45,327 nucleotides of DNA from the NCBI GenBank assembly GCA_963704885.1, contig CAVPIB010000002.1:1-45327 (forward strand). The letters are read 5' to 3'. Both the position numbers and the translations under genes were made by a program. This document shows, piece by piece, positions 11,517 to 40,000 of the stretch. Positions within the stretch are counted from its first letter, which is position 1. Each line of letters begins with the position of its first letter. A model generated the notes under the pieces. It had not been told where the DNA came from, made no database searches, and worked only from the letters and a program-made list of their open reading frames with translations. The DNA comes from an uncultured Actinomycetes bacterium (GTDB lineage Bacteria > Actinomycetota > UBA4738 > HRBIN12).

Positions 11517-11621
11517 GCGACCCCTCGAGCGACCCCTATGACGTCGGCCGGACTACCATCCAGGTGCGCGGCGTCGCCTCGCGACTTCCAACACTCAGGG
11601 AGCACTCGTGAAGGCCGGAGG

Positions 11622-13082
11622 ATGAACGAGCCGACGGAACCGGATCGGCCTCCGGTGGATCGGCCTGGGGCTCTGGCTCGCGCTGCTCGCGGGCAGCGCC
11701 GTCCTGGCGCGTGCCGCCGGCGCCACCACGTCCGCGCTGCCGTTCGTTGCCGTCGCCGTGCTCGCGGTCCTCGGAGTGGTCGGGCTGGTCGCGTATGCGC
11801 GCCTGACGAGCGCGCCGCCGCAGCTGCGCACGCTGCGCGTGTTCGCGATCTTGCTGCCCACGCTGTTCATCATGTGCATCGAGGCGATCCTGCTGATCGT
11901 CGAGGCCGACGAGCTGTTCACGGAGGTGGGCGAGCACATCCTCGTGACGGCGGTCCTCTCGCTTTGCGCGATCCCGTTCTCGATCTGGATACTCCGGTCG
12001 TTCGCCGCGCTCCGTGACGAGCTCGCCCGTCGCGCCGCGCGGCTCGAGCGGCTCCATCGCGCATCGCTCACAGTGACCGGCGAACCATCGGTGCCGCGGC
12101 TGCACGAGGCCATCGTGCGCGGTGCTCGCGACGTGGTCGCCGCCGATCGGGCCGTCCTGCTGCTCGCTGCCGGTGACGGCGAGGAGGGCCTGATGGCCGA
12201 CCCGCCGGTCCCCGAGCCCGACGAGATCGACCTGGCCCTGCTCCGCTCGGCCGGGTCGGCGGCGTCCGACGGCGCCGACCGCTCGTACCTGACCACCCGC
12301 ACCCGTGGGGGGGCGCCTCATGTCCTGCTCGTACGGCGGGCGGCCGGATCGTCGTTCGGCGCGGAGGAAGGGCTCGTCCTCGACATGTTCGGTGTGGCGG
12401 CGGCCGCCGGCCTGGAAAACGCCCAGCGTCTGGGAGGAGGACCAGGCGGTTGGCGACGGTCGAGGAGCGGGAGCGGATCGCGGATCTCCACGATGACCTC
12501 GGGCAGCTCCTCGGATACCTCACGACAAAGATCCAGGCCGCTCGCGAGTTGGTCGCGTCCGGCCGGTCGAGCGCGGCCGCGGAGGAGCTCGCCGGCCTGG
12601 AGGCGTACCCGCTCGTTGAGCGCCCAGGTGCGCGAGGCCATCCTGGGGCTGCGGACCTCCGTCGGACCGGACCGGCCCCTGGGGCGGGCCGGAATCGATG
12701 GAAATACACGGCGGAGTTCAGGGATGCAGGCGGGCCTCCGCACGTCCTTCTCGGGTCCGGTGACCGCCGGTGGTTCCCTGGCCAGTCCCGCGCGGTATCA
12801 GGTGATGCGGATCGCCCAAGGGCGATGTCCAACGCCCGCCGGCACGCAGCGGCCACGACGATGGCGGTCGCGCTCGACGAGCACGACGGCGTATTCGAGC
12901 TGTCCGTGCGAGATGACGGCGCGGGATTCGACCCGACGACAGCGGCCCGCTCGGGACGGTTCGGCCTGATCACGATGGCCGAGCGTGCGCGGGCTGTGGG
13001 CGGGACCCTCGACGTTCGGTCGACCCTCGGCGAGGGGACGACCGTTGCCCTGTCGGTGCCGGTCAACCCGGTGGGAGCCTGA
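11622..13082 (+). CDS. Membrane sensor histidine kinase, NarX-like HisKA_3 type (frameshifted)
   Basis: Several N-terminal TM helices, GAF-like middle, 'EERERIA.DLHDDLGQLLGYL', ATPase 'SNARRHA...VRDDGAGFD...FGLITMAERA...GEGTTV'; GGAGG before the ATG. Confidence 0.88.
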
Positions 13083-13084
13083 CC

Positions 13085-13748
13085 ATGCGGGTGCTGCTCG
13101 CCGACGATCACGAGCTCTTCCGCGAAGGACTCGTGAGCCTCCTGCGCACGCACGACATCGAGGTCGTGGGCCAGGCATCCGACGGCGCGGAGGCCGTGGC
13201 CCTCGCGCGCGCCCTCACACCCGACGCCGTCCTGATGGACCTGATGATGCCGGGGATGGGTGGACTCGAAGCCACCCGTCTGATCAAGGCAGAGCTCCCC
13301 GACATCAAGGTTGTGATCCTCACGGTGTCCGAGGCCGACGAGGACCTGTTCGAGGCGATCAGGAGCGGGGCGCACGGCTACCTCGTGAAGAGCACCCCTT
13401 CGAACGACTTCTTCGAGTTGCTGGAGGCGCTCGACCGGGGCGAGGCGCCGCTCTCCCGAGGGCTGGCGGTCAAGATCGTGCGGTACCTGGCGTCGGGCGG
13501 CGTCGGCGGCGCCGCCGCGTTGACCCCTCGAGAGGACGAGGTTCTCCGGCTCGTCGCGGAGGGGCGAACGGACCAGCAGATCGACGACGGAGCTCTCGGT
13601 GTCGGACGCCACGGTCAAGTTCCACATGTCCGACATCCTCAACAAGCTGCACCTGGAGAACCGGGCCCAGGCGGTCGCGTTCGCGCATCGCCACGGGCTC
13701 ACCCAGGAGCCGACCTCTCCGCCCGAGGACCCTGCCGCGGACCAGTAG
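13085..13748 (+). CDS. NarL/LuxR-family response regulator (frameshift near 13590)
   Basis: REC domain 'MRVLLADDH...LMDLMMPG...GYLVK'; HTH '[15 protein letters not shown]', continuing in another frame as '[31 protein letters not shown]' to TAG 13748. Confidence 0.92.
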
Positions 13749-13844
13749 TCCTGCCCCTACCTAGCCGAAGGTCGAGGTCCTCCTCCCCCCGTCTGGAGCG
13801 ACTCCGCGGGCCCTTCCGCCCTGAGGGGCAACCTGGCTCAGGCC

Positions 13845-13850
13845 TAGGGT
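13845..13850 (+). promoter_or_regulatory. -10 element (TAGGGT) of a leaderless promoter for the 4Fe-4S/NrfD operon
   Basis: TANNNT 6 nt upstream of ATG 13857. Confidence 0.5.
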
Positions 13851-13856
13851 CGAGCC

Positions 13857-14674
13857 ATGAACGAGCAGCTCGAACGAGACGCGACGACGGGCGGCACGGC
13901 GGCGGAGACGAACGAAGGGGTCAGCCGCCGATCGTTCCTCGGGAAGGTCTTCATCGCGGCCAGCGCGGTGACGCTCGGGAGCAAGACCGTGGCGTTCGCC
14001 GACGACGTCATGGGGAACGACGACTCGAGGACGCACCCCAGTGGGCGATGGTCATCGACCTCGCGCGCTGCGACGGCTGCAAGGAGTGCACGAAGGCCTG
14101 CCAGGAGACGCACTTCACCGGCGACCAGGAATGGATCAAGGTGTTCGAGGTCCAGGACGAGGCCGGGAACACGGTGTTCCTGCCACGCCCGTGCATGCAG
14201 TGCGAGAACGCCCCCTGCCTGAACGTCTGCCCCGTCGGCGCGACGTTCCGCAACGAGAGCGGCACCGTGCTCGTCGATCACGAGCTGTGCATCGGCTGCA
14301 GGTTCTGCATGGCGGCGTGCCCCTGCGACGCCCGCTCGTTCAACTGGGGCGAGCCCGAGAACCCGCCCGGGGCGGCTTTCGCGAAGTACTCGCCCGAGTT
14401 CCCGGTCCGCACCGCAAGGGCATCGTGGACGTGCGTGTTGTGCCCACTACGCGATGAACGGACAGCTCCCGGCTTGCGCGAGCGCCTGCCCGATGAGCGC
14501 GATCTGTTCGTGACCTGAAGGCCGACGTCGCTACGAACGGACTCGGGACGGTTCAGGTGTTCGTTGCTGAGCGAGCGCAACGCCTTCCGCTTCGACGAAG
14601 GGCTCGGCACACGCACGCGGGTCTGGTGCCTGCCCGGCCACGGCGAGGACTCCAAGGTGGTGCTGCCGCAATGA
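13857..14674 (+). CDS. Tat-exported 4Fe-4S dicluster protein (NrfC/TtrB/ActB2-like; frameshifted)
   Basis: Tat motif SRRSFL; 'WAMVIDLARCDGCKECTKAC', 'PRPCMQCENAPCLNVCPVGAT', 'CIGCRFCMAACP', 'CVLC...PACASACP'; its TGA overlaps the next ATG. Confidence 0.88.
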
Positions 14675-16060
14675 CGCGTCGGTCGACGACGGCCGGCGCG
14701 CCTGCTCGAGCACGCCGAAGCCCCGATCCACCGGGGGCTTGGGGCGTGCGAGGGCGACTCCTCGTGGTGGGGCTCGGCCTCGTGGTGGCGTGGGGCATCT
14801 TCGCGTGATCTGGGCAGGTCTCGCACACGGCCTGGCGGTCACCGGGCTGAACAACCACGTGAGCTGGGGTTCTACCTCACCAACTTCGTGTTCTTCATCG
14901 GCATCAGCCACGCGGGGACGCTGTCTCCGCATCCTCCGGCTGACCCACGCCGAGTGGCGCCGACCCATCACCCGGCTCGCGGAGATGATCCAGTCGTCGC
15001 GCTCGTGGTGGGCGCCACCATGGTCGTCGCCGACATGGGGCGCCCCGACCGTCTGCAGTTCTCGTTGTGACGCACGCGCACCTACCGGTCGCCGCTTTCC
15101 TCTGGGACGTCCTGTCGATTGAGCACCTACATCGTCGGGAGCATCCTCTACCTGTACCTGCCGCTGGTTCCCGACCTCGCCGATACCTCCGCGACGGCGG
15201 CGTCGGCGGCAGGGTCCGTGGCTGGCTGTACTCGGGACTCGCGCTCCGCTGGCACGGCCTGTCCGAGCAGCGACGCCTGCTGCTCCGCGCCGATCGCTGT
15301 CATGGCGGTCGTGATCGTGCCGGTCGCGGTCTCGGTCCACCGGTGGTCTCGTCGATCTTCGGGATGACGCTCGTGAACGGGTGGAACTCCACGATCTTCG
15401 GGCCTACTTCGTGGTGGGCGCCGATCTTCTTCTGGGACCGCCGGGATCATCGTCGTGATGGCGATCTTCCGCCGGGGCTACCACCTCGAGGAGTTCATCA
15501 CCGAGATGCACTTCCGGTGCTCTCGGATTCCTCCTGTTGGTGCTGGGCATCCTGTACGCCTACTTCACGCTGTCGGAGTACGCAACCGTCGGGTTCAAGA
15601 TGGAGGTCGGCGAAGGCGACGCTCCTGTTGGCTTTGCTCCGTCGGGCGGTTCGCCCCTTACTTCTGGTTCTTCGCGACTCTTCGGCTTGATCGTCGTCCG
15701 ATCGTCCTGCTCGCCCTGCCCCGCACACGCAAGGTCAAGTGGATAGTCACCGCCGCGGTGCTCGTGAACATGGGCATGTGGCTCAAGCGGTTCGTGATCG
15801 TGATCCCGTCGATGGCGCTCCCCTTGATGCCATACGAGTGGGGGACCTACCGCCCGACCTGGGTTGAGTGGTCGATCACGGTAGGCGCGTTCGCGGCCTT
15901 CGCCCTGGTGTTCGTGATCTTCGCCCGGATCTTCCCGGTGATCTCGGTCTGGGAGGTCGAGGAGGGGTGGGAGGTCGAGGAAGCCCGCGCTCGTCGACCC
16001 CTGCCCACCGCCGTGCCGTCGCCCGGCTTCGCCTCGACGATCGTGGAGGAGTCCTCATGA
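14671..16060 (+). CDS. nrfD: NrfD/PsrC-family membrane quinol-interacting subunit, ActC-like (frameshifted)
   Basis: 'TGLNNHVSWG', 'NFVFFIGISHAGTL', 'WRRPITRLAE', 'DMGRPDR', 'LWDV', 'STYIVGSILYLYLPLVPDLA', 'AVSVH', 'GWNSTIFGP', 'GMWLKRFVIVIP...YRPTWVEW'. Confidence 0.88.
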
Positions 16061-16629
16061 GACGACTGCTCGCCGCCGTCACCTTCGGGGTCGTGCTAGC
16101 GGCCATCGGGATCGCGCCGGCCCACGCCGCCGCCGACGTCGCCACGACGATCGTCATCGACCCGGGGACCGTGACCGTGAACGGCCAGCCTGTCGAGCTT
16201 CACCTCCACGTCCGGGACGCGGCCGGCCGGCCCGTGTCTGGCGCACTGGTGCGGCTGTTCGTGCCGGTCGAGTTCATGGGCGAGACGAAGAACGAGATCG
16301 TCGGCGAGGGCACGACGAACGAGGGCGGCGGCGCCGTGATCCGGTTCGCGCCGGCCCAGACCGGTCAGGTCGAGGGCACGCTGGAGTTCTGGGGATCGAC
16401 CGGCTATGCGCCGTCGGAGGCGGTCGTGTCGTTCGACATCCAGCAACCGGCGTACGTGTACGACCCCACCCCCGTGGGCCTCCAGGCCTGGTGGGCGCGG
16501 AGCTACATGATCCTCGTCCCGTTCGTCGTGATCTGGACGATCTACCTGTTGCTCCTCTGGCTCGTGCTGCGGGTCAGGAGGGCGGGCGCAGCGGCGTCAG
16601 CGCCATCCGATATCGCCGCAACGAGTTGA
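16057..16629 (+). CDS. Exported Ig-like/beta-sandwich protein with a C-terminal TM anchor
   Basis: ATGA-coupled start 'MRRLLAAVTFGVVLAAIGIAPAHA'; 'VRDAAGRPVSGALVRL...GTTNEGG'; hydrophobic tail 'YMILVPFVVIWTIYLLLLWLVLRVRR'. Confidence 0.75.
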   Translation: MRRLLAAVTFGVVLAAIGIAPAHAAADVATTIVIDPGTVTVNGQPVELHLHVRDAAGRPVSGALVRLFVPVEFMGETKNEIVGEGTTNEGGGAVIRFAPAQTGQVEGTLEFWGSTGYAPSEAVVSFDIQQPAYVYDPTPVGLQAWWARSYMILVPFVVIWTIYLLLLWLVLRVRRAGAAASAPSDIAATS

Positions 16630-16639
16630 AGGAGGAACG

Positions 16640-17149
16640 ATGAGGAAGACGCAGCTCCTGCTGAGGGTGATGGCGACGGTCGCCGCGCTGACGCTGGTCC
16701 TGGCCGCATGCAGCTCGTCCGATGACGGCTCGTCCGCCGGGGCGACAAGCGCGACCGAGGCGCCCAGCCCGACCGAGGCGTCGACCCCGACGGCAGCCGA
16801 GGGCGCGGCCGTCACGGTCACCGTCGGCGAGACCGACGTGCAACACATGTACATGAACCTCGATCCAGGGACGGTCGCCGCAGGCACGGTGACGTTCACG
16901 GTCGTGAACGAAGGGGTCAAGAAGCACGAGTTCGTGATCCTGTCGACCGACGTGATGGCCGCCGACCTGACGGTCGAGGGTGACGAGGTCGTCGAGGACG
17001 ACTACAACGCCATCGACGAGATCGGGGACCTGCCGGCCGGCGAGACCCTGACCCTGACCGTCGAGCTGCCTGCCGGTCACTACGCCCTGATCTGCAACCT
17101 CAAGGGGCACTTCCGGATGGGGATGTACGCGGACTTCACGGTCGAGTAG
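16640..17149 (+). CDS. Cupredoxin (blue copper, auracyanin/sulfocyanin-like) lipoprotein
   Basis: SD AAGGAGG; lipobox LAAC; S/T/P/A-rich linker; 'NEGVKKHEF' and 'CNLKGHFRMGM' supply the H...C-x4-H-x4-M type-1 Cu ligands. Confidence 0.9.
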   Translation: MRKTQLLLRVMATVAALTLVLAACSSSDDGSSAGATSATEAPSPTEASTPTAAEGAAVTVTVGETDVQHMYMNLDPGTVAAGTVTFTVVNEGVKKHEFVILSTDVMAADLTVEGDEVVEDDYNAIDEIGDLPAGETLTLTVELPAGHYALICNLKGHFRMGMYADFTVE

Positions 17150-17169
17150 TTCCCACGTTCCGGATGCGA

Positions 17170-17193
17170 GAGGGCGGCCCGTCGGCCGCCCTC
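17170..17193. terminator. GC-rich hairpin between convergent operons
   Basis: GAGGGCGGCC-cgtc-GGCCGCCCTC, a perfect 10-bp stem; no U tract. Confidence 0.6.
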
Positions 17194-17218
17194 ATCGTTC
17201 CCGCCACAGGCGGGGCCG

Positions 17219-18043
17219 CTAGGCCAAGGTCTCCTCGAGCGCGCGACGTACGAGGACCTTCGCCAGCTCGCGGCGGTATTCGGCGCTGCCGAACGAGTCC
17301 GACGGCGGGCTGGTCCCTTCGTCCGCCCGACCTGCCGCGGTAGCCGGGTCCGAGCCGCCGCCGAGTGCCTCCTCGACCCCGGCCGCGCGGAGCGGCGTCT
17401 CGCCCATGTTGGTGAGCGCCACGTGCGCGGCCCCGTTGGACCGAACCGCCGCCACTCCGACGAGCGCCCAGTCCTGCGCGCGACGGTGGAACTTGATGTA
17501 ACTCCACCCGGCGTCCTTCGTGACGGGAACGCGCACCTCGGTCAGGACCTCGTTCTCGGCCAGGTCCGGTGTGAACAGTCCTTTGAAGAAGGCGTCCGCC
17601 GCCACGGTGCGCGATGCGCCGCCGGCGCCACGCACCACGAACTCCGCGCCGAGCGCCACCATCACCGTGGGCAGGTCCGACGCAGGATCCGCGTGGGCGA
17701 TCGAACCGCCGATCGTTCCCATATGCCGGACCTGCGGGTCGCCGATCTCACCGGCCGTGTGCGCCACGATCGGGCAGAGCTGCTGAAGCGCCTCGCTGTT
17801 CGCAACGTCGTGATGGCGGGTGAGCGCCCCTATGGCAACCGCGTCCCCGTCCTGCTTGACGTAGGACAGGTCGCCGACGCGGCCGATGTCCACCAGGAGT
17901 GAAGGCCGCGCCAGGCGCAGTCTCATGAGCGGCAGCAGCGAATGCCCGCCGGCCAGGATCTTCGCGTCTTCGTTCGCGGACAAGAGCTCGATCGCGTGGT
18001 CGATGCTCTCGGCCCGCGCGTACTCGAACGATGCCGGGATCAT
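17219..18043 (-). CDS. Mo-hydroxylase FAD-binding medium subunit (CoxM/CutM-like)
   Basis: 'MIPASFEYARA', 'ILAGGHSL', 'QVRHMGTIGGSIAHADPASDLP', 'SAEYRRELA'; ATGA overlap with the large subunit. Confidence 0.95.
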   Translation of the reverse strand: MIPASFEYARAESIDHAIELLSANEDAKILAGGHSLLPLMRLRLARPSLLVDIGRVGDLSYVKQDGDAVAIGALTRHHDVANSEALQQLCPIVAHTAGEIGDPQVRHMGTIGGSIAHADPASDLPTVMVALGAEFVVRGAGGASRTVAADAFFKGLFTPDLAENEVLTEVRVPVTKDAGWSYIKFHRRAQDWALVGVAAVRSNGAAHVALTNMGETPLRAAGVEEALGGGSDPATAAGRADEGTSPPSDSFGSAEYRRELAKVLVRRALEETLA

Positions 18044-20397
18044 GCGCCACCTCCTTGCGCGTCCTTGATAGCTCGCCACACCCGCTCGGGCGAGGCGGGC
18101 TTGCCGATGTTGGTCACGCCCAGATGCGAAACGGCGTCGACCACAGCGTTGATCACGGCCGGTGGCGACGCGATCGTGCCGGCCTCACCGATCCCCTTCA
18201 CTCCGAGAGGGTTGGTGGTGGACGGCGTGACGGTGCGATCGAGCGTCATGGTCGGGATCTCGGTCGAACCCGGGATCAGGTAGTTGGTCATGGAGCTGGT
18301 CGAAAGGTTGCCGCTCTCGTCGTAGATCGCCTCCTCATAGAGGGCCTCAGCGATCCCCTGAGCCACGCCGCCGTGCACCTGCCCCTCCACGATCTGCGGG
18401 TTGATGATCGTGCCGCAGTCGTCGACCGCCACGTAACGCAGGATGTCCGTCGCGCCCGTCTCGGTGTCGACCTCGACAACGCAGATGTGCGCACCGGCGG
18501 GCCACGTGAAGTTCGGCGGATCGTAGACGGCCGTCGCCTCCAGGTTCGGCTCGTAGCCGGCCGGCAGGTTGTGCGCGTGCCATGACGTGAGCGCCAGCTC
18601 GGGGATGGTCCTGGCCTTGTCCGGAGCGCCCTTCACGCGCCAGGCGTCGTCGGCGTACTCCAGGTCGTCCTCCGCCACCTCCAGCTCGTGCGCGGCCAGC
18701 ACCCGCGCCTTCTCCTTGATCTTCTCCATGGCGAAGTGCAGCGCGACCCCGCCGACCGACAGAGAACGCGAACCGTACGTGTCCATGCCGAGCGGGGTGA
18801 GCGCGGTGTCGCCGTGCATGACGTCGATGTCGTCGGGCGACACACCCAGCCCGTCCGCCACGATCTGCGACCAACTGGTCTCGTGACCCTGGCCGTGCGG
18901 CGACGTGCCCGTCGACACCACGATCTTGCCTGTGGGCAGACACCGGATGGTGGCCGCGTCCCACCCCCGGCCGCGTAGCGCAGCGCGCCCAGGATGTTCG
19001 AGGGCGCCAGGCCGCACATCTCGATGTACGTCGAGAGCCCGATCCCGATCTGCATGGTGTCGCCGCTATCTCGACGGGCTTGCTGTTCCTTGCGGAACTG
19101 CTGGTAGTCGGCCAGCTCGAGCGCCCGGTCGAACGCCGGCTCGTAGTTCCCGGAGTCGACGTTCAGGCCGCAGATGGATGTGGTCGCCTCGTCGAACGGC
19201 GGGTGGAAGTTCATGCGGCGCACCTCGGCCGGGTCCTTGCCGATCTTCCGCGCGAACGCATCGACGAGCCGCTCCAGGACGTAGGTCGCCTCGGGCCGAC
19301 CGGCGCCGCGGTAGGCGTCGGTCGGCGTGGCGTTCGTGAGCACGCCCCGGAACTCGAACCAGTACGCCTCGGGCTTGTAGGGGCCCATGTAGACCCAGCC
19401 ACCGAGCTCGGGGATGCCCGGCGTGAGCAGCTGGTAGTACGCGCCCATGTCCGCGATCTCCACGAACTTCAGCCCGAGGATCTTGCCGTCGTCCGTGCCG
19501 GCGAGCGTGCAGTCATGCGTCACCCCGCGGCCGTGGATCGTGGCGACGTAGTTCTCGCTCCGCTCCTCGATCCACTTGACCGGCCGGCCGGTCTTGCGGG
19601 TGAGCACCAGCGCCAACGCTTCCTCCGCGTACACGTTCAGCTTCGAGCCGAACCCGCCGCCCACGTCGGGCGCGATCACGCGGAGCTTCTCCTCGGGGAT
19701 GCCGCACACACCCGAGAGCGTGACCTTGGCGATGTGCGGGATCTGCGTGGCGGTCCAGAGCGTGAACTCGCCCATGGACGGTATGGAGGTGGCCAGGCAA
19801 CCGCGTGGCTCCATGGCGTTCGGGATCAGCCGTGGCTGGTGGTAGTGCTCCTGCACGATCACCGGCGCGGTGTCGAATATCCCCTGGTCACCGGCCCCAC
19901 CGTGGCTCCAATGGACCGTGACGTTCGAGCCGAGCTCCTCGTGGATCAAAGGCGCCCCGTCGGCCATCGCGGCTTCGACGTCGATGACCGCCGGGGAGCT
20001 CGGTGACGTCGACCGTGACGATCTCGGCCGCGTCCAGCGCCTGCTCGCGGGTCTCGGCCACCACGACCGCCACCGCGTCACCGTGGAAGCGGATCTTGTC
20101 CTTGGTGAGGGGGTAGTGGTTCGGGATCTTGATGTCCTCGGTGATCGGCCAGACGAACGGCAGGCCGCCGACCTCCAGGTCGGCGGCCGTGTAGACGCCG
20201 ACCACGCCCGGCATCGACACCGCGGCGGAGGTGTCGATCGAGTCGATCGTGGCATGGACGTACGGCGGGCGAACCATGGCCATCCACACCATCCCGGGGA
20301 GGGTGTGGTTGTCGATGTAGCTCGCCTGTCCGGTCAGGAGCTCGGGGTCCTCCTTGCGCAGGACCTCGCGCCCGATGTACTGCTCGGTGGTCGCCAT
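18040..20397 (-). CDS. Xanthine-dehydrogenase-family molybdopterin large subunit, form II CoxL-like (frameshifts near 18965 and 19995)
   Basis: 'RKEDPELLTG', 'DVGGGFGSK', active-site loop AYRGAGRPEA, 'HGQGHET', 'GQVHGGVAQG', 'KGIGEAG'. Confidence 0.93.
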
Positions 20398-20408
20398 GGC
20401 GCGCCCCC

Positions 20409-20885
20409 TCAGGCCTTCGCGCCGCTCATGGAGCCGGCGGCATCCAGGATGGACTTGACGATGTTCTGGTAGCCGGTGCAGCGACAGAGGTTGCCCTCCA
20501 ACGCCTCCCGGACGTCTTGCTCCGTCGGTGTGGGGTTCTCCTTCAGATAGCTGGCCGCCGCCATGATCATGCCGGGCGTGCAGTAGCCGCACTGGAGACC
20601 GTGGTTACGGTGGAACGCGTCCTGCAGCGGATGCATCACCCCATCGGAAGCCATATCCTCGATGGTGGTGACTGATCGACCGTCGGCCTGCGCCGCCAGC
20701 AAGGTGCAGGACTTGACCGACTCGCCGTCCAGCAACACGGTGCAGCTGCCGCACGACGAGGTGTCGCAACCCACGTTCGTACCGGTGAGCCCGAGGGTCT
20801 CTCTGATGAAGTACACGAGGAGCGTGCGCGGCTCGACGTCGGCCTCGCGCTGAATCCCGTTCACGGTGACGGAGACGTTGGTCAC
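20409..20885 (-). CDS. Mo-hydroxylase 2Fe-2S small subunit (CoxS/CutS-like)
   Basis: '[12 protein letters not shown]', 'QCGYCTPG', 'NLCRCTGY'; SD AAAGGAG. Confidence 0.96.
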
Positions 20886-20983
20886 TGGCGACTCCTTTCA
20901 GACCGGAGCTGTTGGGGCCGTTCGACAGTGCCGGAGTCTAGTCCTGTCCCTCAGAACGCGCGACCCGGATGCGGGCCACGCCG

Positions 20984-20989
20984 TACCAT
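20984..20989 (+). promoter_or_regulatory. -10 element (TACCAT) of a leaderless promoter
   Basis: TANNNT 6 nt upstream of ATG 20996. Confidence 0.5.
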
Positions 20990-20995
20990 CGGGGT

Positions 20996-22129
20996 ATGAG
21001 CGAGATCACCGACGTGCTGGAGGCGATCGAGTCCCTGTCGGCTAAGGGCGAACGGATGGCGCTCGCCACGATCGTGGCGGTCCGAGGCTCCACGTACCGG
21101 CGCCCCGGCGCCCGCCTGCTGGTCCCCGAGGACGGTGCCCCGATCGGCAACATCAGCGGTGGCTGCCTGGAGGGCGACGTCGCGGACTTGGCCCGGATCG
21201 TCATGCAGGAGGGCCGGGCTCGGCTGGCCGGCTGGGATCTCACGGCCGACGACGACGACGTGTGGGGCCTCGGTCTGGGGTGCAACGGGGCGATCGAGGT
21301 GTTCATCGAACCGGCCGACCGCGCCGCCGAGGTGGCCGGAGCCCTGCGTATGGCGCTGGAGGAGGAACGGCCTATCAGCGTGGTGACCGTCCTCGAGTCC
21401 GCGATCGCAAGGGTGGAGTCAGGTGCTCGGATGGTGGTCAAGCCCGATGGTACCGGCGAGGGGACGCTGGGCGACGACGCCGTGGACCAGGCGGCCACCG
21501 CGGCCGCGCTGGAGCAGCTTGCCGCCCAGACCTCGGAGATCCGCACGTTCCCCGGCGAGATCCGCGCGTTCGTGGAGGTGCTGGAGCCACCGCTCCGACT
21601 GCTGATCTGCGGCGCGGGCCACGACGCCATCCCGCTGGTGAAGGCCGCCTCGATCCTGGGCTGGAACCCGATCGTGGTGGACGACCGAGCCGGGTTCCTG
21701 ACCCCCGAGCGATACCCCGAGGCCGCCGGGTTCGTCCACGTTGAGCAGCCGGACGAAGCAGCCAAGGCAGCGGCGGCCGACGAGCGGACGTTCGTCACGG
21801 TGATGACGCACAACTTCCTGCGCGACAAGGAGTACCTCCGCTCGTTCCTGGGCTCCCCCGTCGCATACATCGGGATGCTGGGGCCGGCAGCGCGCACACA
21901 GCGGCTCTTCATGGAGCTAGCTGACGAGGGCGTGGTCATCACCGACGAGGACCGCGCACGTATCCACGGCCCAGCTGGGCTGGACCTGGGCAGCGAAGGG
22001 CCGGAGGAGATCGCCGGTTCGATCGTGTCCGAGATCGTCGCGGTTCGACGCCGCCGCGCGGGCGGGTTCCTCAAAGAGCGACCGGGACCGATCCACGACC
22101 GCCCACGCCCAGGCGCCGAAGCGCGCTGA
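20996..22129 (+). CDS. xdhC: XdhC/CoxF-family Moco maturation chaperone
   Basis: 'GSTYRRPGARL', 'SGGCLEGDV', 'GLGCNG', 'LLICGAGHDA', 'VMTHN', 'YIGMLGP', 'HGPAGLDLG'. Confidence 0.93.
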   Translation: MSEITDVLEAIESLSAKGERMALATIVAVRGSTYRRPGARLLVPEDGAPIGNISGGCLEGDVADLARIVMQEGRARLAGWDLTADDDDVWGLGLGCNGAIEVFIEPADRAAEVAGALRMALEEERPISVVTVLESAIARVESGARMVVKPDGTGEGTLGDDAVDQAATAAALEQLAAQTSEIRTFPGEIRAFVEVLEPPLRLLICGAGHDAIPLVKAASILGWNPIVVDDRAGFLTPERYPEAAGFVHVEQPDEAAKAAAADERTFVTVMTHNFLRDKEYLRSFLGSPVAYIGMLGPAARTQRLFMELADEGVVITDEDRARIHGPAGLDLGSEGPEEIAGSIVSEIVAVRRRRAGGFLKERPGPIHDRPRPGAEAR

Positions 22130-34316: not shown

Positions 34317-36010
34317 CCGGCCGTCGCGTCGCGGTGATCGGCGCCGGCATGACCAAGTTCGTGCGGCGAGCGCAGGAGACGGGCAAAGAGCTCTCGTGGC
34401 AGGCGGCGAGCGCGGCGCTCCGGTCGTGCGAGCTCTCGCTCGCCGACGTGGACATCGTCTGCAGCGGCACGGCTCCCGACGCGTTCGACGGAGTGCATCG
34501 CAAGGGCGACTACCTGGCCGACGGGTGTGGCGCCGTGGGCAAGCCGTACATCCGCACCTACGTTGGCGGCGGCACCGGCGTGTTCGCGCCCATCCAGGGG
34601 TGGTACACGATCGCGTCAGGCATGGCAGACGTGGCGCTCGTGGTGTGCGAGGAGAAGATGTCGTCCTGCCAGCCGCACCCGCAGGGCGCGTTCCTGACCA
34701 TCTTCGACAACATCATCGAACGTCCGCTGGAACCCAACCTGCTCTGGATCTTCGCGCTCGAGATGAACCGCTACATGAACGCGTACGGGCTGGACAAGCG
34801 CGACATCGCGGCCGTCGCCGTGAAGAACAAGCGGAACGCGGCCGGCCATCCCGCGGCGCTGCTCGGCCAGGAAGACATCACGGTGGAGGACGTGCTGGCC
34901 TCCGAGGTGCTCGCGTGGCCGGTGCAGCGGCTGGACGTCTCGCCGATCAGCGACGGCGCGGTGGCGATCGTGATGGCGTCCGAGGACGTCGCCCGTCGAC
35001 TCAGCCCCGCCCCCGTGTGGGTGGAGGGCGTCGGCTGGAACCTAGACACCAGCTACTGGACCAACCGCGATCTGGTCTACCCCCAGTACGTGGAGAACGC
35101 CGCGCGCATGGCCTACGACATGGCCGGCATCACCGAGCCGCGCAAGCAGATCCACATCGCCGAGCCCTACGACCCCTTCGACTACAAGGAATTGCACCAC
35201 CTGGAAGGGCTGATGCTCTTCGACAAGGGCAAGGCCCCCGAGGCCGCGCGCGACGGCGTGACCGCGCGCGACGGCGACCTTCCGTGCTGCCCGTCCGGCG
35301 GGCTGCTCGGCGTCGGCAATCCGATCGCCGCCGCCGGCCTGATGAAGATCGCGGAGCTCTTCTGGCAGCTGCGCGGCGAGGCAGGCGCTCGGCAAGTGCC
35401 CGGGACGCCCGAGCGCGGCGTCGCGCAGGCGTGGGGCGACCTGATGCAGGTGGGAACGGTCGTGGTGATGGGCGTCGACGAGCACGGCGGCGGCACCGGC
35501 GCCGCGCCGACGCTGCCTGCCAGCCATCCGCTGTCGGACGCCGAGTTCCACGGCGCGGTCGGCGCGGTCGACGACACGCTCGACGTCGCCTACGAGTGGG
35601 ATGCCGGCGAGGCGATGGGCGCGTTCCTGGAAGGGCTCCGCGACGGGCGCATCGTGGCCACGTCCTGCACGCAGTGCGAGGGCACGCTGGTGCCGCCCCG
35701 CAAGTTCTGCGAACGCTGCTTCCGGCCAACCGATCGCTGGACCGAGGTCGCGGCGACGGGGGTCGTGGAGACGTTCTCGATCTGCCACGTGTCCTGGGAC
35801 ATGCGCGACCTCGACCCACCCGAGATCCCCGCCGTTATCCGCCTGAACGGCGCGACCGACGGCGGTTTCCTGCACAAGCTCGCCGACGTCGCGCCCGACG
35901 ACGTGCGGATCGGCATGCCGGTAGAGGCCGTATGGCGCCCGCTCGCCGACCGCACCGGCTCGATCCTGGATATCGCGCACTTCCGACCCGTCACCGAAGG
36001 AGGCGCGTGA
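34313..36010 (+). CDS. Thiolase-fold protein fused to a C-terminal DUF35 (Zn-ribbon + OB-fold) domain
   Basis: 'RVAVIGAGMTKF', 'EEKMS', 'SPISDGA', 'EPYDPF', 'PSGGLLGVGNP'; then 'CTQC..TLVPPRKFCERC', 'GVVETF', 'VRIGMPVEAVW'. Confidence 0.92.
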   Translation: MTGRRVAVIGAGMTKFVRRAQETGKELSWQAASAALRSCELSLADVDIVCSGTAPDAFDGVHRKGDYLADGCGAVGKPYIRTYVGGGTGVFAPIQGWYTIASGMADVALVVCEEKMSSCQPHPQGAFLTIFDNIIERPLEPNLLWIFALEMNRYMNAYGLDKRDIAAVAVKNKRNAAGHPAALLGQEDITVEDVLASEVLAWPVQRLDVSPISDGAVAIVMASEDVARRLSPAPVWVEGVGWNLDTSYWTNRDLVYPQYVENAARMAYDMAGITEPRKQIHIAEPYDPFDYKELHHLEGLMLFDKGKAPEAARDGVTARDGDLPCCPSGGLLGVGNPIAAAGLMKIAELFWQLRGEAGARQVPGTPERGVAQAWGDLMQVGTVVVMGVDEHGGGTGAAPTLPASHPLSDAEFHGAVGAVDDTLDVAYEWDAGEAMGAFLEGLRDGRIVATSCTQCEGTLVPPRKFCERCFRPTDRWTEVAATGVVETFSICHVSWDMRDLDPPEIPAVIRLNGATDGGFLHKLADVAPDDVRIGMPVEAVWRPLADRTGSILDIAHFRPVTEGGA

Positions 36011-36441
36011 TGGCGCGCACCGTCCACGGCGAGCTCCCGGTCGCGTTCCACTACACGCCGGGGCTGGGTAACACCGCGTTCTTCGAAGCGCTCCGCGACC
36101 GGGGCGTGTTACTCGGATGCCGCTGCGAGGCGTGCGAGTACACGTATCTCCCAGCCCGAGTCTTCTGCGAACGCTGCTTCGCCGAGCTAACGGCCGACAC
36201 CGAGTGCGGTCCCGGTGGAACACTCGAGTCGTTCACGGTGTGCCACGTCGACATCGACGGTGAGTCGATGGAGGAGCCGGTGATACTAGGACTCGTCAAG
36301 TTGGACGGCGCGGACACGATGTTGATGCATCGTTTGGTCGGCAACGGCATATGGGAGATCGGTGCGAGGGTCCGCGCAGTGGTGAAGTCCGAACGCGCTG
36401 GATCCATCCTCGATGTCGAGGGCTTCATGACGCCGACTTAG
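36010..36441 (+). CDS. DUF35 Zn-ribbon OB-fold protein
   Basis: 'CEAC..TYLPARVFCERC', 'GTLESFT', 'LVKLDGADT', 'IGARVRAV'; 1-bp TGA/ATG overlap with the previous gene. Confidence 0.92.
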   Translation: MARTVHGELPVAFHYTPGLGNTAFFEALRDRGVLLGCRCEACEYTYLPARVFCERCFAELTADTECGPGGTLESFTVCHVDIDGESMEEPVILGLVKLDGADTMLMHRLVGNGIWEIGARVRAVVKSERAGSILDVEGFMTPT

Positions 36442-36537
36442 TCCCGCCGCGGAGGGACGTCGGTACCAATGACTCAGGAGCATCGCTCGCTTGCGCGCCC
36501 AACGAATGCCCGGCCCCCGGAATCTGGTCCGCTCCTT

Positions 36538-36572
36538 GTGTGGTGAGCAGCCGCGTGTGGGTGAGCAGCCGC
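36538..36572. repeat. 17/18-bp tandem repeat in intergenic DNA
   Basis: GTGTGGTGAGCAGCCGC followed by GTGTGGGTGAGCAGCCGC. Confidence 0.8.
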
Positions 36573-36719
36573 TGACGACCTCCTCGATGGTCCCGGGTGA
36601 GTCTCCGTACGGCCGGCGAGCCGGTGATCGACTTGAATGGCAGAGAGGGAGGTGACTCTCATGCGCTGCCCTCCATACACTCACGAGCGCCCGGTCCGTC
36701 GAGGTGACAGTTAACGCCG

Positions 36720-37073
36720 TTACCCAATCACCCTAAGCTGCTCGCGACAGCTCGGACCGACCATTTCACGAAGGACCGAGCCCGGCTCTGGTGCCCGCGA
36801 TATGAGCTCAAGGAAGGAAACCGAAATGAGCTCGACAACTTCGGCGTCACCTTCTGACATGCCCCGTTCAACGAAGGCAAGAAGTTCGATGAGGCGCGTG
36901 GGCTGCCCTTCAGCCGAGCGCGAAAGCTCTGCCTCAGCCCACCGCTCGACATCGGCCAGAAGCACGTGGGGAAGGAGGCCGTCATAGAGATCCAGATGCT
37001 CCTGCAACAACTCACCCAGCCAAGGATGCAGATAGGTCATCGCACCAATGAAGGAGAACTCGCTCGCCCTCAT
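36720..37073 (-). CDS. Putative immunity protein of the RHS toxin
   Basis: 117-aa acidic, helical-looking ORF whose ATG overlaps the RHS stop (ATGA); 'LLQEHLDLYDGLLPHVLLADV', 'ELISVSFLE'. Confidence 0.8.
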   Translation of the reverse strand: MRASEFSFIGAMTYLHPWLGELLQEHLDLYDGLLPHVLLADVERWAEAELSRSAEGQPTRLIELLAFVERGMSEGDAEVVELISVSFLELISRAPEPGSVLREMVGPSCREQLRVIG

Positions 37074-40000
37074 AGTGTTAGTCCAAGAGCGTTCTGGAGG
37101 TCGTCGAGCAGTGACTGGGCGACGAGGCGATCGGCTTCGCTGAGATTGGTTTTCAAGATCGATCTGAGGGCGTTTGAGTACTGCAACGCCTTCATCGTGT
37201 GGAAGAGCCCGCCGGTGGGCTGTCCCGTGAGGATCTCGTTGCGTACGGCATCAGCCGTCGTTCCGGTGCCGACACGACCGGGGTTGGTCGTACCCCTGTA
37301 GAGGTCGTCAACCACGTTCTGGAGCCTCGGGTCAGTTACTACTGGCTTGGGCAGGATGTCATCTACAGCCGCGGTCTTCGCGGCACCGATCCCACTCAGT
37401 TTCCCGAGCCCGACTGCGGTTACAACAAGGCTGGCGCTGCCGAGGGCACAACGCCCGATCCAAGAGCCGAAGCTCTCGGTTCCATCGGATCCGAAGCAGC
37501 CTTGAAGGTACCCGTAGGCAGGGTTCAGGTGCCCGTTGTACCAATCCAACAGCCCGCCCCACGAGAACGACATCCCGCTCGGGTCGCTCATCACGGTCGG
37601 CCGTCCCCCGGCGAACGCGTAGGACGGGGTCTGGGAGGCAGGATCGTTCTCGAAGAAGCCCCCGGTCCCCGGGTCATACATGCGAGCTCTCAGGTTGTAG
37701 AAGCCGGTGGGGTCGCGGTACTCCCCGTCGAAGCCGCGGAAGTTCGCCGGTGGGGATCCGGTCTGGGTGGCGGTGCGGAAAGCTCCGTAGGGCTCGTAGG
37801 TGTATGTCCGTTGGGTCGCGCCAGCGGCGCTCGTGAGGTTCGCGACCGAGCCCATACCGTCTGACAGGAAGTAGCCGAACGCGGTGGGCGTGCCTTGGGA
37901 GATCAGGCCGTTGCCGTAGATGTAGCGGCGCAGCGTCGCCGTGGTGGACTCCACCGCGAGTTGGGGAACCGGGGCGTTCACGTCCCAGGCGTAGTTCGTG
38001 GTCGCGGCGGTTCCGACCTTGGAGGTGAGGCGGTTGCCGTCACCGTCGTAGGTGAACGTGGTGGCGACACCGCCCGAGGTGGTGGAGCGCATCCGGTTGG
38101 TGAGGTCATGGGTGAACGTGCGTGTGCCCATCGCGGAGATGTTGCCGTCGGTGCCGTAGGTGAAGATCGTGGCGCCCCCGGGTGGGGTCCCGCAGCCGGA
38201 ACCGCCCGTCGTTGATGACCAGCAGAGCTGGTTCACTGTGTTGTAGGCGTAGGTCGTTGTTGACGGGGTCGTCCCGAAGGCCTGCTTGGACGTGATGTTG
38301 CCGACCGGATCGTAGGCATAGGCGATCTTGGTGAGCCCGGTTGATGCCGAGCACGGCGTTGGCGTCGTGTCGTAGCAGACCTGCTGGAGCCGGTCGTCGT
38401 TGAGGTACGTGTAGTTGATCGTCTCCGTCGGCGTGACCACCTTCGTGGGGTTGCCCACCGCGTCCAGGGTGTAGTTGAAGCTCGAGAGCGTGACGCCGCT
38501 GCGGATGTTCGTGAGGTTGGTGAGACGGTCTGCCTTGTCGTAGGTCGCCGTAGACACGAACCCGTTCGCGTTGGGAAGCGTCTTCGTGATGGTGCCGGCC
38601 CCCACGTTGTAGGCGAACCTGGTGGAGGTCGTCGGAGCGGACCCGCACGAGGCCGTAGAGGTTCCCACGAACGCGTAGCAGAGGCGGTTGTGGCTGTCGT
38701 AGTTGTAGGAGGTCTTGGTCGCCGCGGAGTCTGGATAGGTCCTTCGGGTGAGATTCCCGGCGGCGTCGTAGATGTAGCTGAACTGGGGAGCCCCCGTCCC
38801 GGGACCGCGCTTGGCGGTGAGGAGCCGGTTCATCTTGTCGTAGGTGTAGTTCATGACGGCTGACGCGCCATCGGTCATGGTGGCCCTGTTCCCGGCGTTG
38901 TCGTAGGTGAACGAGACATTCGGGGTCGTCGGGGCGTTGCTGAAGGTGATCGAGGAGAGCCGGTCCATCTGGTCGTTGGTGCGGGTGATGGTGGCACCAG
39001 AAGGGAGCGTCTCGGTGACCTGACTGGTGGCGGGGTTGTAGAGCGAGTACTGCCACGTGTGAAGAGGATCGGTGACCAACTTCAGCTCGTTGTTGTCCCA
39101 GTACTGATAGCTCGTGATGTTGTTGTTCTGGTCCTTCACGGTGGCGATGTTCCCGTTGCCGTCGTACGTGAACGAGACCTTGCGGCCCAGCGGATCGTTG
39201 ACCTCTTGCAGGCGTCCGCCAGGGAAGTAGGTGTAGGTCGTGAGGTGCAGGTTTGCATCCTGGACTGTGTACAAGGAGCCCGTTGGCTTGTAAGCGTACG
39301 TCGTCGTCTGGATCAGCGGATCCGTCACCGTGTTCAGCTGGTTGTTCGGGTAGTAGGTGTAGTTCCAGGTGTAGTCGGCCGGGAGGTTGGGCGAGGTGTT
39401 CCCCCGTGGAGTGACCATGCTCAACCGCCAGCCCGTGTTCACGTTGTACGTGTAGCTGGTAGCACCGGAGGGCGGGGCGTTGCATGCGTTCGGGGACGTC
39501 CCCACGAAGACCCAGCAGAGGTTGCCCTGTCCGTCGTAGCGATACGTGGTGACGTTGCCCCGAGGATCGGTGACGGTCTCGAGCAGTTTCGAAGTTGGGT
39601 TGTATGTGTACAACTGCTTGTTCGCTTGCGTGGCCCCCGAGCATGTTGCGCCGGGCGCTGTTGGCAGGAGCACGCACGTGAGGTTCCCTGCCGCGTCGTA
39701 CTCGTACCTCGTGACGTTGCCACGCCCATCGGTGAAACTGGTGACCTCGCTGAAGCTGTTGTAGGTGTACGACGTGGTGTTGCTGGTGAGCGGAGGGATG
39801 ATCGTCAGCGAGGTCACGTGACCGTCCCCGGGGTCATCGTACGTGTAGTTGTAGACCCACAGCCGATTCCCGGGCCGCGTGATCTGCGTCGGGTTGTTGT
39901 GGATGTCATAGTTCGAGTACGTGGTTACGTTGTTGTTGGGGTCCGTCGAGCTGATCAACTTCCCGCCGTCATAGGAATCGATCCAGTCATGGCCGTTGTT

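Follow-up and report, generated by a model that had tools for sequence, protein, structure and literature searches.

A predicted quinol module with an immunoglobulin-like membrane subunit and a cupredoxin partner in an uncultured actinomycete

The stretch of DNA analyzed here (the window, 45,327 nucleotides) is an entire contig, CAVPIB010000002.1, from the 3.0 Mb and 97% complete assembly GCA_963704885.1 of an uncultured Actinomycetes bacterium. It contains a cassette of six genes, in which a sensor kinase and a response regulator are followed by an iron-sulfur (FeS) protein, an NrfD-family membrane protein, a protein with an immunoglobulin (Ig)-like domain and a transmembrane (TM) helix, here called the Ig-TM protein, and a cupredoxin lipoprotein (Table 1). 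We propose that the cassette encodes an accessory, two-component-regulated menaquinol:cupredoxin oxidoreductase that bypasses the bc complex, and we consider this to be the probable interpretation. The cassette is apparently an undescribed form of the NrfCD-type quinol module, distinguished by the Ig-TM protein as a predicted third subunit and, in this case, by a copper acceptor. In the following, G000 is the host assembly with contigs C1 to C4, of which C2 is the window; other genomes have G-numbers and the NrfD loci compared have L-numbers.

Gene content and conservation of the cassette

The four core genes were located by open reading frame (ORF) calls and a profile scan at positions 13857-17149, all on one strand. 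The FeS and NrfD genes overlap in an ATGA at 14671-14674, as do the NrfD and Ig-TM genes at 16057-16060, and the gap of 10 bp between the Ig-TM and cupredoxin genes contains a Shine-Dalgarno-like AGGAGG before 16640. Pfam matches in the four genes are to the 4Fe-4S dicluster, NrfD, Big_1/Big_3 (weak) and cupredoxin/SoxE families, and the unit holds neither a molybdenum (Mo) subunit nor a CxxCH motif. An earlier reading of the window (hereafter the original prediction) had described the same tight linkage, with both overlaps and the short gap, and the same lack of a molybdopterin subunit and a c-type cytochrome, and in these respects it stands. It had also grouped the four genes correctly, but overlooked that the kinase and regulator upstream are part of the unit.

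Table 1. Positions of the cassette and its features in the window, and of the type B loci in the wider family.
Feature	Position	Strand	Remarks
Whole cassette, unit of presence or absence	11520..17228	.	absent in C3
Membrane sensor histidine kinase, HisKA_3 and HATPase_c, NarX/NarQ-like cytoplasmic part	11608..13082	+	frameshifts in the window; the C4 copy has 490 aa
NarL/LuxR-type response regulator	13085..13748	+	frameshifts in the window; the C4 copy has 220 aa
Imperfect palindrome of 18 bp, operator-like	13760..13777	+	conserved upstream in 9/9 type A loci
-10-like hexamer, predicted leaderless promoter	13845..13850	+	6 nt upstream of ATG
FeS protein, twin-arginine translocation (Tat) signal (SRRSFL), 16 Cys, four [4Fe-4S], NrfC/PsrB/DsrO-like	13857..14674	+	frameshifted in the window, 275 aa in C4
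NrfD-family membrane subunit, ActC-like sequence, Asp replacing the ActC quinol His	14671..16060	+	frameshifted in the window, 459 aa in G010
Ig-TM protein: Ig-like (Big) domain preceded by a signal peptide and followed by a C-terminal TM helix that has an invariant Trp	16057..16629	+	predicted third subunit clamping the FeS protein to NrfD
Cupredoxin lipoprotein: lipobox Cys24, Thr/Ala/Pro linker	16640..17149	+	type-1 Cu ligands His96, Cys152, His157, Met162
G+C-rich hairpin after the last gene	17166..17198	+	predicted terminator without U-tract
Type B loci; domain is the C-terminal ~100 aa of the Ig-TM protein	L022, L023-L027, L041-L047, L049, L050, L055, L068-L070; e.g. L024:9408-9707	minus (L024)	

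The FeS protein carries the twin-arginine motif in eight of the nine called starts, the ninth being a late start call. Its best match in the Protein Data Bank (PDB) is the PsrB/NrfC protein 2vpw_B (E 6e-33), and its proximal-cluster motif is CIGCRFC, of the [4Fe-4S] type, where loci for alternative complex III (ACIII) have CVGTRYC. The Tyr of CPY is kept in the FeS protein and the Ser, Asp and Asp of the quinone site are kept in NrfD. The pair thus shows what characterizes the NrfCD/PsrBC module: an NrfD protein with a four-cluster FeS protein, Tat export to the positive (P) side of the membrane and the quinone-site residues. The cupredoxin scores above the Pfam cut-offs for SoxE and Copper-bind, and its four ligands (His, Cys, His, Met) are invariant in all 56 aligned homologs, as in type-1 (blue) copper proteins. 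It is acidic, with 20 Asp and Glu residues versus 4 Lys and Arg, has no tail rich in His or Met, and its nearest solved relatives are the auracyanins, which are weak matches (E 0.018-0.076). A seemingly natural fusion of an Ig domain to a cupredoxin (P0041) was rejected as a frameshift artefact, its middle part being the out-of-frame tail of the Ig gene.

We refer to the close form of NrfD (71-100% identity) as type A. It comprises nine loci, in eight genomes of the class, representing six genera in one family, and in the metagenome locus L066, and the gene order FeS, NrfD, Ig-TM and cupredoxin is the same in all nine (in C4 with a deletion described below). With the intact NrfD of G010 as a query, matches were obtained in 20 of 294 genomes of the class (E <= 1e-60) and in 16 of 401 sampled genomes of the phylum (E <= 1e-50), while a scan of the genome collection with a single NrfD gave only 8 loci; the proteins of the relatives carry Actinomycetota labels. 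The cassette is accessory: among 12 other members of the genus, a single genome contains it. Pairwise ratios of nonsynonymous to synonymous substitution rates (dN/dS; 4-5 loci) were 0.08-0.24 for the FeS protein, 0.20-0.27 for NrfD, 0.33-0.52 for the Ig-TM protein and 0.34-0.70 for the cupredoxin including its linker. Such purifying selection, with dN/dS < 1 in all four genes, and the lack of Mo-family neighbors at Ig-TM loci (see below) rule out that the unit is a remnant of a Mo or ACIII operon. The original prediction hinged on the cupredoxin being conserved in the neighborhood and on homologous operons not always including a cytochrome or a Mo subunit; the cupredoxin follows in all nine type A loci, and these loci have neither of the two subunits.

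The kinase and regulator pair lies upstream of the operon in eight of the nine type A loci, the ninth being cut by a contig end, and all seven full-length kinases of the clade, as well as the kinase of L054, share an acidic and His-containing membrane loop, E..DE..TE.GEH. The palindrome has no mismatches in five loci, one in two, two in an inverted copy and four in another locus. No site in the genome apart from those in C2 and C4 reaches the top score of the operator matrix (31.2), the next best score being 21.5, and a regulon scan of G000 with this matrix gave no convincing second target. The palindrome is probably the operator of the cassette's own regulator. The boundaries given in the original prediction, a leaderless promoter and a hairpin, received mixed support. 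A TANNNT hexamer is present 6-12 nt before the ATG in nine of ten aligned upstream regions and probably represents such a promoter, but a sigma-70 scan of the upstream region called none. Likewise, the hairpin is more stable than its shuffled versions (z = -3.8; 0/200 equally stable) and is probably a terminator, but it lacks a U-tract and was not called by a terminator scan.

The FeS and NrfD reading frames are broken in the window by many one-base indels. However, C2 duplicates C4:954097-999028 at 96% identity, with 38 gap openings and 35 mismatches in the 2244 bases that correspond to window positions 13701-15944, and both frames are open in C4. We therefore attribute the frameshifts to assembly errors, which settles a doubt raised in the original prediction; real frameshifts or a pseudogene are ruled out by the open C4 frames, the indel pattern between C2 and C4 and the dN/dS values. 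As assembled, C4 lacks window positions 15945-16447 (503 bp) and with them the tail of NrfD and the Ig domain, so that neither copy is whole as written; the four-gene operon is intact in eight other loci. Contig C3 joins window position 11519 straight to 17229, and the 5.7 kb missing there are exactly the kinase, the regulator and the four genes, which identifies the six-gene cassette as a unit. The assembly thereby holds three strain-like versions of one region: with the cassette (C2), without it (C3) and with the internal deletion (C4). Flanking the cassette are two CoxMSL/xanthine-dehydrogenase-like clusters that include XdhC-type genes (window 17219-21000 and beyond); as C3 has these clusters too, they lie outside the cassette. 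Further downstream, at about 36000-43000 (C4:990780-996250), the G+C content is lower and two large ORFs resemble YD/RHS-repeat or secreted proteins by eye. Sequencing runs contained only small shares (<=0.13), and one RNA library contains a few short contigs that closely match the Ig and cupredoxin genes, for which DNA carry-over is possible.

The predicted three-subunit core compared with known systems

Structure modeling supports a core of three subunits, the FeS protein, NrfD and the Ig-TM protein. The model of the Ig-TM protein shows an Ig beta-sandwich and a long C-terminal helix, with a predicted local distance difference test (pLDDT) score of 86.7, and a fold search with it returned generic Ig folds only. 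In a four-chain model of the G010 proteins, the Ig-TM protein scored 0.70 on the FeS protein and NrfD versus 0.37 for the best of three controls; of the solved complexes, 116 of 157 attained the mark used, as did 2 of 215 mismatched pairs, rates that are only rough for a four-chain job with its own alignments. The model runs agree in at least 97% of the contacts, with a partner pLDDT of at least 79. In the model, the helix with the invariant Trp159 packs on NrfD 139-220, the helical region that bears the quinone-site Asp and continues beyond it, a hairpin at Ig-TM 68-83 rests on FeS 220-242, and the Ig contacts on the FeS protein involve residues 61, 116-117, 203-205, 220-242 and 255. No cupredoxin residue is listed in the interface, for which the job scored only the Ig-TM partner. 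The scaffold or anchor role given to the Ig-like protein in the original prediction fits the model as well as six fusions of the protein to NrfD, from which it behaves as a structural subunit. The quinol cavity of ACIII is bounded by helices of ActA and ActD (PMC7439408), and the modeled Ig-TM helix may fill this role in the cassette.

The type A NrfD matches only ActC among the sequences in the PDB (residues 18-427, E 1e-63 to 7e-55), in agreement with the ActC-like sequence noted in the original prediction. Using the residue numbers of R. marinus ActC (table in PMC8076601), mapped via the PDB match, all nine loci keep Arg119, Glu122, Tyr176, Asp191, Arg196, Asp197, His247 and Arg395 on the negative (N) side of the membrane as well as Ser164, Asp169, Tyr270 and Glu326. 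The His of HAGTL, His97, is listed in the same table as an N-side residue and not as a quinol ligand (PMC8076601), and it is kept in eight of the nine loci; the exception is the G010 protein (L018:9809-11188), where Met replaces it. By contrast, the ActC quinol site His139/Ser164/Asp169/Asp253 is not matched and reads Asp/Ser/Asp/Ile-Val in 9/9. An Asp is also found in QrcD (D120) and Wolinella PsrC (D76) at the site equated with His139 (PMC13059093), an equivalence drawn from the shared motif position, and an Asp quinone site can thus be functional.

ACIII (ActABCDEF; 6lod, 6f0k, 6btm, 8k9e) and the cassette have in common the ActC-type NrfD with 10 TM helices, the N-side channel residues with Arg395, and the proposed overall reaction, the auracyanin acceptor of ACIII being the nearest, if weak, solved relative of the cassette cupredoxin. 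They differ in that ActA, ActE, ActD and ActF are missing from the operon in all nine type A loci, and in that ActB is a Mo-like domain fused to an FeS domain with a proximal [3Fe-4S] cluster, whereas the FeS protein of the cassette stands alone and has a proximal [4Fe-4S] cluster. Electrons leave ACIII from the proximal cluster to a heme wire (PMC7439408), and an exit through the distal cluster would instead resemble PsrB/NrfC. In a FastTree phylogeny of 121 NrfD rows, those associated with Ig-TM and with Mo proteins do not intermix. In a quick, unrooted IQ-TREE phylogeny of 58 of these rows, leaving out near-copies and most Mo rows, a branch with 99 in the Shimodaira-Hasegawa-like approximate likelihood ratio test (SH-aLRT) has 35 Ig rows and 3 long-branch Dms-like rows on one side and 5 ACIII rows and 15 split-ActB rows on the other, and the type A clade has a value of 100. 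G000 has no NrfD-family genes beyond the two cassette copies. The name "mini-ACIII" in the original prediction therefore fits only in part: His139 is Asp, Asp253 is Ile or Val, the proximal motif is CIGCR and not CVGTR, ActA, ActD, ActE and ActF are absent, and NrfD branches apart from ACIII. Judged by its sequences, the Ig-TM module resembles ACIII in its proposed reaction but is not a member.

Among the closest known systems are also the NrfCD/PsrBC/DsrOP/QrcCD modules (PsrABC, 2vpw), which likewise combine a four-cluster FeS protein with a cofactor-less NrfD membrane subunit, with QrcD and PsrC also sharing the Asp at the quinone site, but which differ from the cassette in that the latter adds the Ig-TM subunit and the cupredoxin acceptor. 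This FeS/NrfD pair is a known quinol/quinone module, which according to Duarte et al. (2018, PMC6303296) may function by itself together with soluble carriers, so that the absence of a Mo subunit is not in itself new. Scores against curated models were all below the cut-offs (bits/cut-off: DsrP 124/350, QrcD 61/570, QrcC 147/400, DsrO 195/200), and the cassette NrfD, which is close to ActC, is far from the DsrP, QrcD and HybB models; no DsrMKJOP or QrcABCD partner genes were found in the locus. The split-ActB, "Qrc-like" operons, which encode multiheme c, Mo-family, FeS and ActC-like NrfD proteins, have NrfD proteins that are 45-54% identical and agree with the cassette in the Asp of the quinone site and, for the most part, in the proximal motif with four Cys, but they also have a large Mo-family subunit and multiheme cytochromes. 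Finally, CopI- and sulfocyanin-type cupredoxins share the set of type-1 ligands, but the NCBIfam scores are far below the cut-off, and the cassette cupredoxin is a lipoprotein in one operon with a quinone module.

The module was absent from the literature searched, in line with the original prediction; subscription reviews of ACIII variants or the NrfD family and the supplements of PMC8076601 were outside this scope. In the text covered of that NrfD survey (PMC8076601) there is no such complex and no "immunoglobulin," and "copper" and "cupredoxin" occur 0 times there and in the supplements of PMC6303296.

The wider Ig-TM family and its exchangeable partners

Gene calling covered 125 NrfD loci, taken from genome regions and from metagenomes (the best 80 of at least 582 matches), including the near-duplicates L042/L068/L069 and L078/L079. 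An Ig-TM protein is encoded in 53 of these loci and a Mo-family neighbor in 42, and the two exclude each other: none of the 53 has a Mo-family neighbor, and hence none has the catalytic subunit of a Psr/Ttr/Dms-like complex iron-sulfur molybdoenzyme with Mo-bis(pyranopterin guanine dinucleotide), while Ig-TM is found in 0/42. The remaining 30 loci are mostly cut by contig ends. The sister group of 42 loci (e.g. L090, L101 and L138) combines multiheme c, a Mo-family subunit, FeS, ActC-like NrfD and a tetraheme protein. In six loci the Ig-TM protein is fused to the C-terminus of NrfD (E <= 3e-17). An Ig profile search of protein representatives was dominated by large Ig-repeat proteins, and an Atlas search gave only unnamed "hypothetical" clusters.

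The electron-carrying partner is swapped within the family. The cupredoxin lipoprotein stands beside Ig-TM in the nine type A loci; other cupredoxins, adjacent or fused, are found in L067, L071, L073, L085 and L097, and a di-cupredoxin in L054, with Pfam support for all tested cupredoxins of the wider family but L097. Furthermore, c-type cytochromes accompany Ig-TM in L031-33, L035, L054, L072, L075, L080, L108 and L139, and DOMON domains in L067 (with Pfam support) and, by likeness, in four more loci. The "heme-free" character given in the original prediction thus holds for type A, but not for many of its relatives. L085 combines an FeS protein of the [3Fe-4S]-type CVGTR, an NrfD with a different C-terminal extension and an Ig-TM protein with an N-terminal cupredoxin-like domain.

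In another 19 loci, which we call type B, Ig-TM is fused to a cytochrome-c-like (PSCyt1-type) domain that lacks both heme-binding Cys and shares 31-38% identity with the PSCyt1-type domains of L031-33, in which CxxCH is present. The domain keeps a His and a distal Met-Pro-Pro, and a canonical internal twin-arginine precedes the second TM helix in 18 of the 19 loci (the nineteenth has a variant RR) versus 0/3 of the CxxCH relatives. Its sequence suggests a non-covalent heme protein inserted by dual Sec/Tat targeting (cf. PMC5449189). A fold search with the domain gave no match at E <= 0.001, the top rows being c-type cytochromes. The first, distal FeS cluster motif has a five-residue insertion in type B, the Acidimicrobiia loci, L054, L091 and L097, which is absent in type A, where the motif is a plain CxxCxxC and most loci have basic residues close to it. 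These surroundings could suit an acidic cupredoxin, but this is a hint only, as the FeS domain and the cupredoxin are both net acidic.

Proposed function and alternative explanations

In the proposed mechanism, NrfD would bind menaquinol close to the external surface of the membrane and pass electrons to the proximal [4Fe-4S] cluster of the Tat-exported FeS protein, from where they would run along the four clusters to the distal one. The helix of the Ig-TM subunit would lie on the quinone-side helices of NrfD, with the Ig domain bracing the FeS protein. The lipid-anchored cupredoxin would take up single electrons, probably at the distal cluster, in the place of the catalytic subunit of other systems, and would carry them along the membrane to a terminal enzyme that accepts electrons from copper, such as a caa3-type oxidase or a NirK-like protein, skipping the bc complex. 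Type-1 copper sites usually lie above +180 mV. Menaquinol has a potential of -70 mV (PMC7439408), and the step from menaquinol to such a site is therefore downhill.

The host has candidates for the acceptor. The cluster at G000:C1:699693-713778 presumably encodes a split cytochrome b, a Rieske protein, a monoheme c, ccm/res-type genes, a caa3-type oxidase and a membrane-anchored cupredoxin, and the gene at G000:C1:281149-282579 is taken to encode a NirK-like copper protein of two domains that has a cupredoxin at its C-terminus; both were named from motifs and genome searches. The dihaem bcc-aa3 supercomplex of model actinomycetes is unlike the split cytochrome b cluster of the host. Since G000 encodes the caa3-type oxidase and cupredoxins besides that of the cassette, such as the membrane-anchored and NirK-fused ones, a copper-to-copper hand-off is plausible. 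A specific link of the cassette to NirK was tried and found to be weak, and only one of the 294 class genomes has a NirK-like match over the curated NirK cut-off.

Several observations weigh against the proposed function. No terminal enzyme travels with the cassette, and no acceptor strictly co-occurs with it among the carrier genomes; a NirK-like gene is present in 3/8 carriers versus 64/294 class genomes. Each of the five carriers that were tested is already equipped with cytochrome b and a heme-copper oxidase, which makes the benefit of a further branch unclear, and four of the eight carriers (G018, G020, G186 and G189) encode Tat-signal Mo enzymes elsewhere. The cupredoxin and the FeS domain are both net acidic, and the cupredoxin has a weak match to the copper-resistance protein CopI (E 2e-5, 24 bits versus a cut-off of 200). 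In NrfD, the quinol ligand His139 of ActC is replaced by Asp and Glu394 by Lys. Finally, type B loci (L023, L024, L026, L027, L044-L046, L049 and L050) are situated in islands of metal and thiol-redox genes.

The last of these points, with the weak matches to CopI and also EfeO, could indicate a role in metal or envelope-redox homeostasis, in which the quinol pool sets the redox state of a CopI-like cupredoxin or a surface metal, with the conserved acidic and His-containing loop of the kinase serving as a metal sensor. Among the neighbors chosen for scanning (73 of 195), type B modules lie beside ZnuABC, an ArsP permease, Fur, a BlaI-type repressor, TlpA/CcdA and Lgt. We consider this role unlikely, because none of the 17 type A neighbors scanned is a metal-resistance gene, the cupredoxin has no His/Met-rich tail, and cytochromes fill the same slot in many relatives. 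Also quite unlikely is that the module is an orphan NrfCD-type donor to a reductase encoded elsewhere, either a Mo enzyme or, directly, NirK, and that the cupredoxin has an accessory role. The face of the FeS protein at the distal cluster appears free in the model, the regulator pair is NarX/NarL-like and the four carriers named above have Mo enzymes with a Tat signal; but such proteins are lacking in G000 (whose three Mo-family proteins are all without the signal), G010 and G229, the gene in G225 being cut, the operator motif occurs nowhere else at high score in G000, and the NirK-like gene is present in only three of the eight carriers.

Electrons could also flow in the reverse direction, if the cupredoxin collected them from an oxidation outside the cell and the module reduced menaquinone, driven by the proton gradient, as QrcCD does with electrons from cytochrome c3. 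The Asp at the ActC His position, as in QrcD and PsrC, agrees with this, and QrcCD runs from carrier to quinone (PMC6303296). Nevertheless, reverse flow seems improbable, given that no oxidizing enzyme is linked to the cassette and that a type-1 site with two His, Cys and Met generally lies several hundred mV above menaquinone. Least probable by our estimate is a redox-sensing accessory of the two-component system that carries no flux, although kinase and regulator are tightly linked to the module in eight of nine clade loci and many type B loci: kinases differ between subtypes, many loci of the family have no kinase among the near neighbors, and the operator before the four genes marks them as output. 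We thus favor menaquinol oxidation by the cassette with the cupredoxin as acceptor.

A bolder hypothesis, which we put forward tentatively and hold to be possible rather than probable, is that the FeS protein, ActC-like NrfD and Ig-TM constitute an unrecognized third class of "complex III," a minimal quinol oxidase chassis of three subunits, present in several prokaryotic lineages, with interchangeable carriers of copper, heme c or non-covalent heme. The version described here would transfer electrons from quinol to copper without heme and may conserve energy through the retained N-side proton path of the ActC type, while the sister version would use a cysteine-less cytochrome c domain that is seemingly exported in a folded state by Tat.

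The cassette bears on the questions of proton pumping by ActC-type subunits and of the role of the [4Fe-4S] clusters in ACIII (PMC7439408, PMC13059093, PMC6303296). It is a system of about 1,100 residues with the N-side residues of ActC and a full wire of four clusters, with no ActF and no heme and no need for cytochrome c maturation, and could serve as a simple reconstituted test bed with a colored copper read-out. Furthermore, many genes of uncultured Actinomycetota and Chloroflexota that are annotated as "orphan polysulfide reductase NrfD" would be re-labeled as a modular respiratory branch, for which the Ig-TM subunit is the marker.

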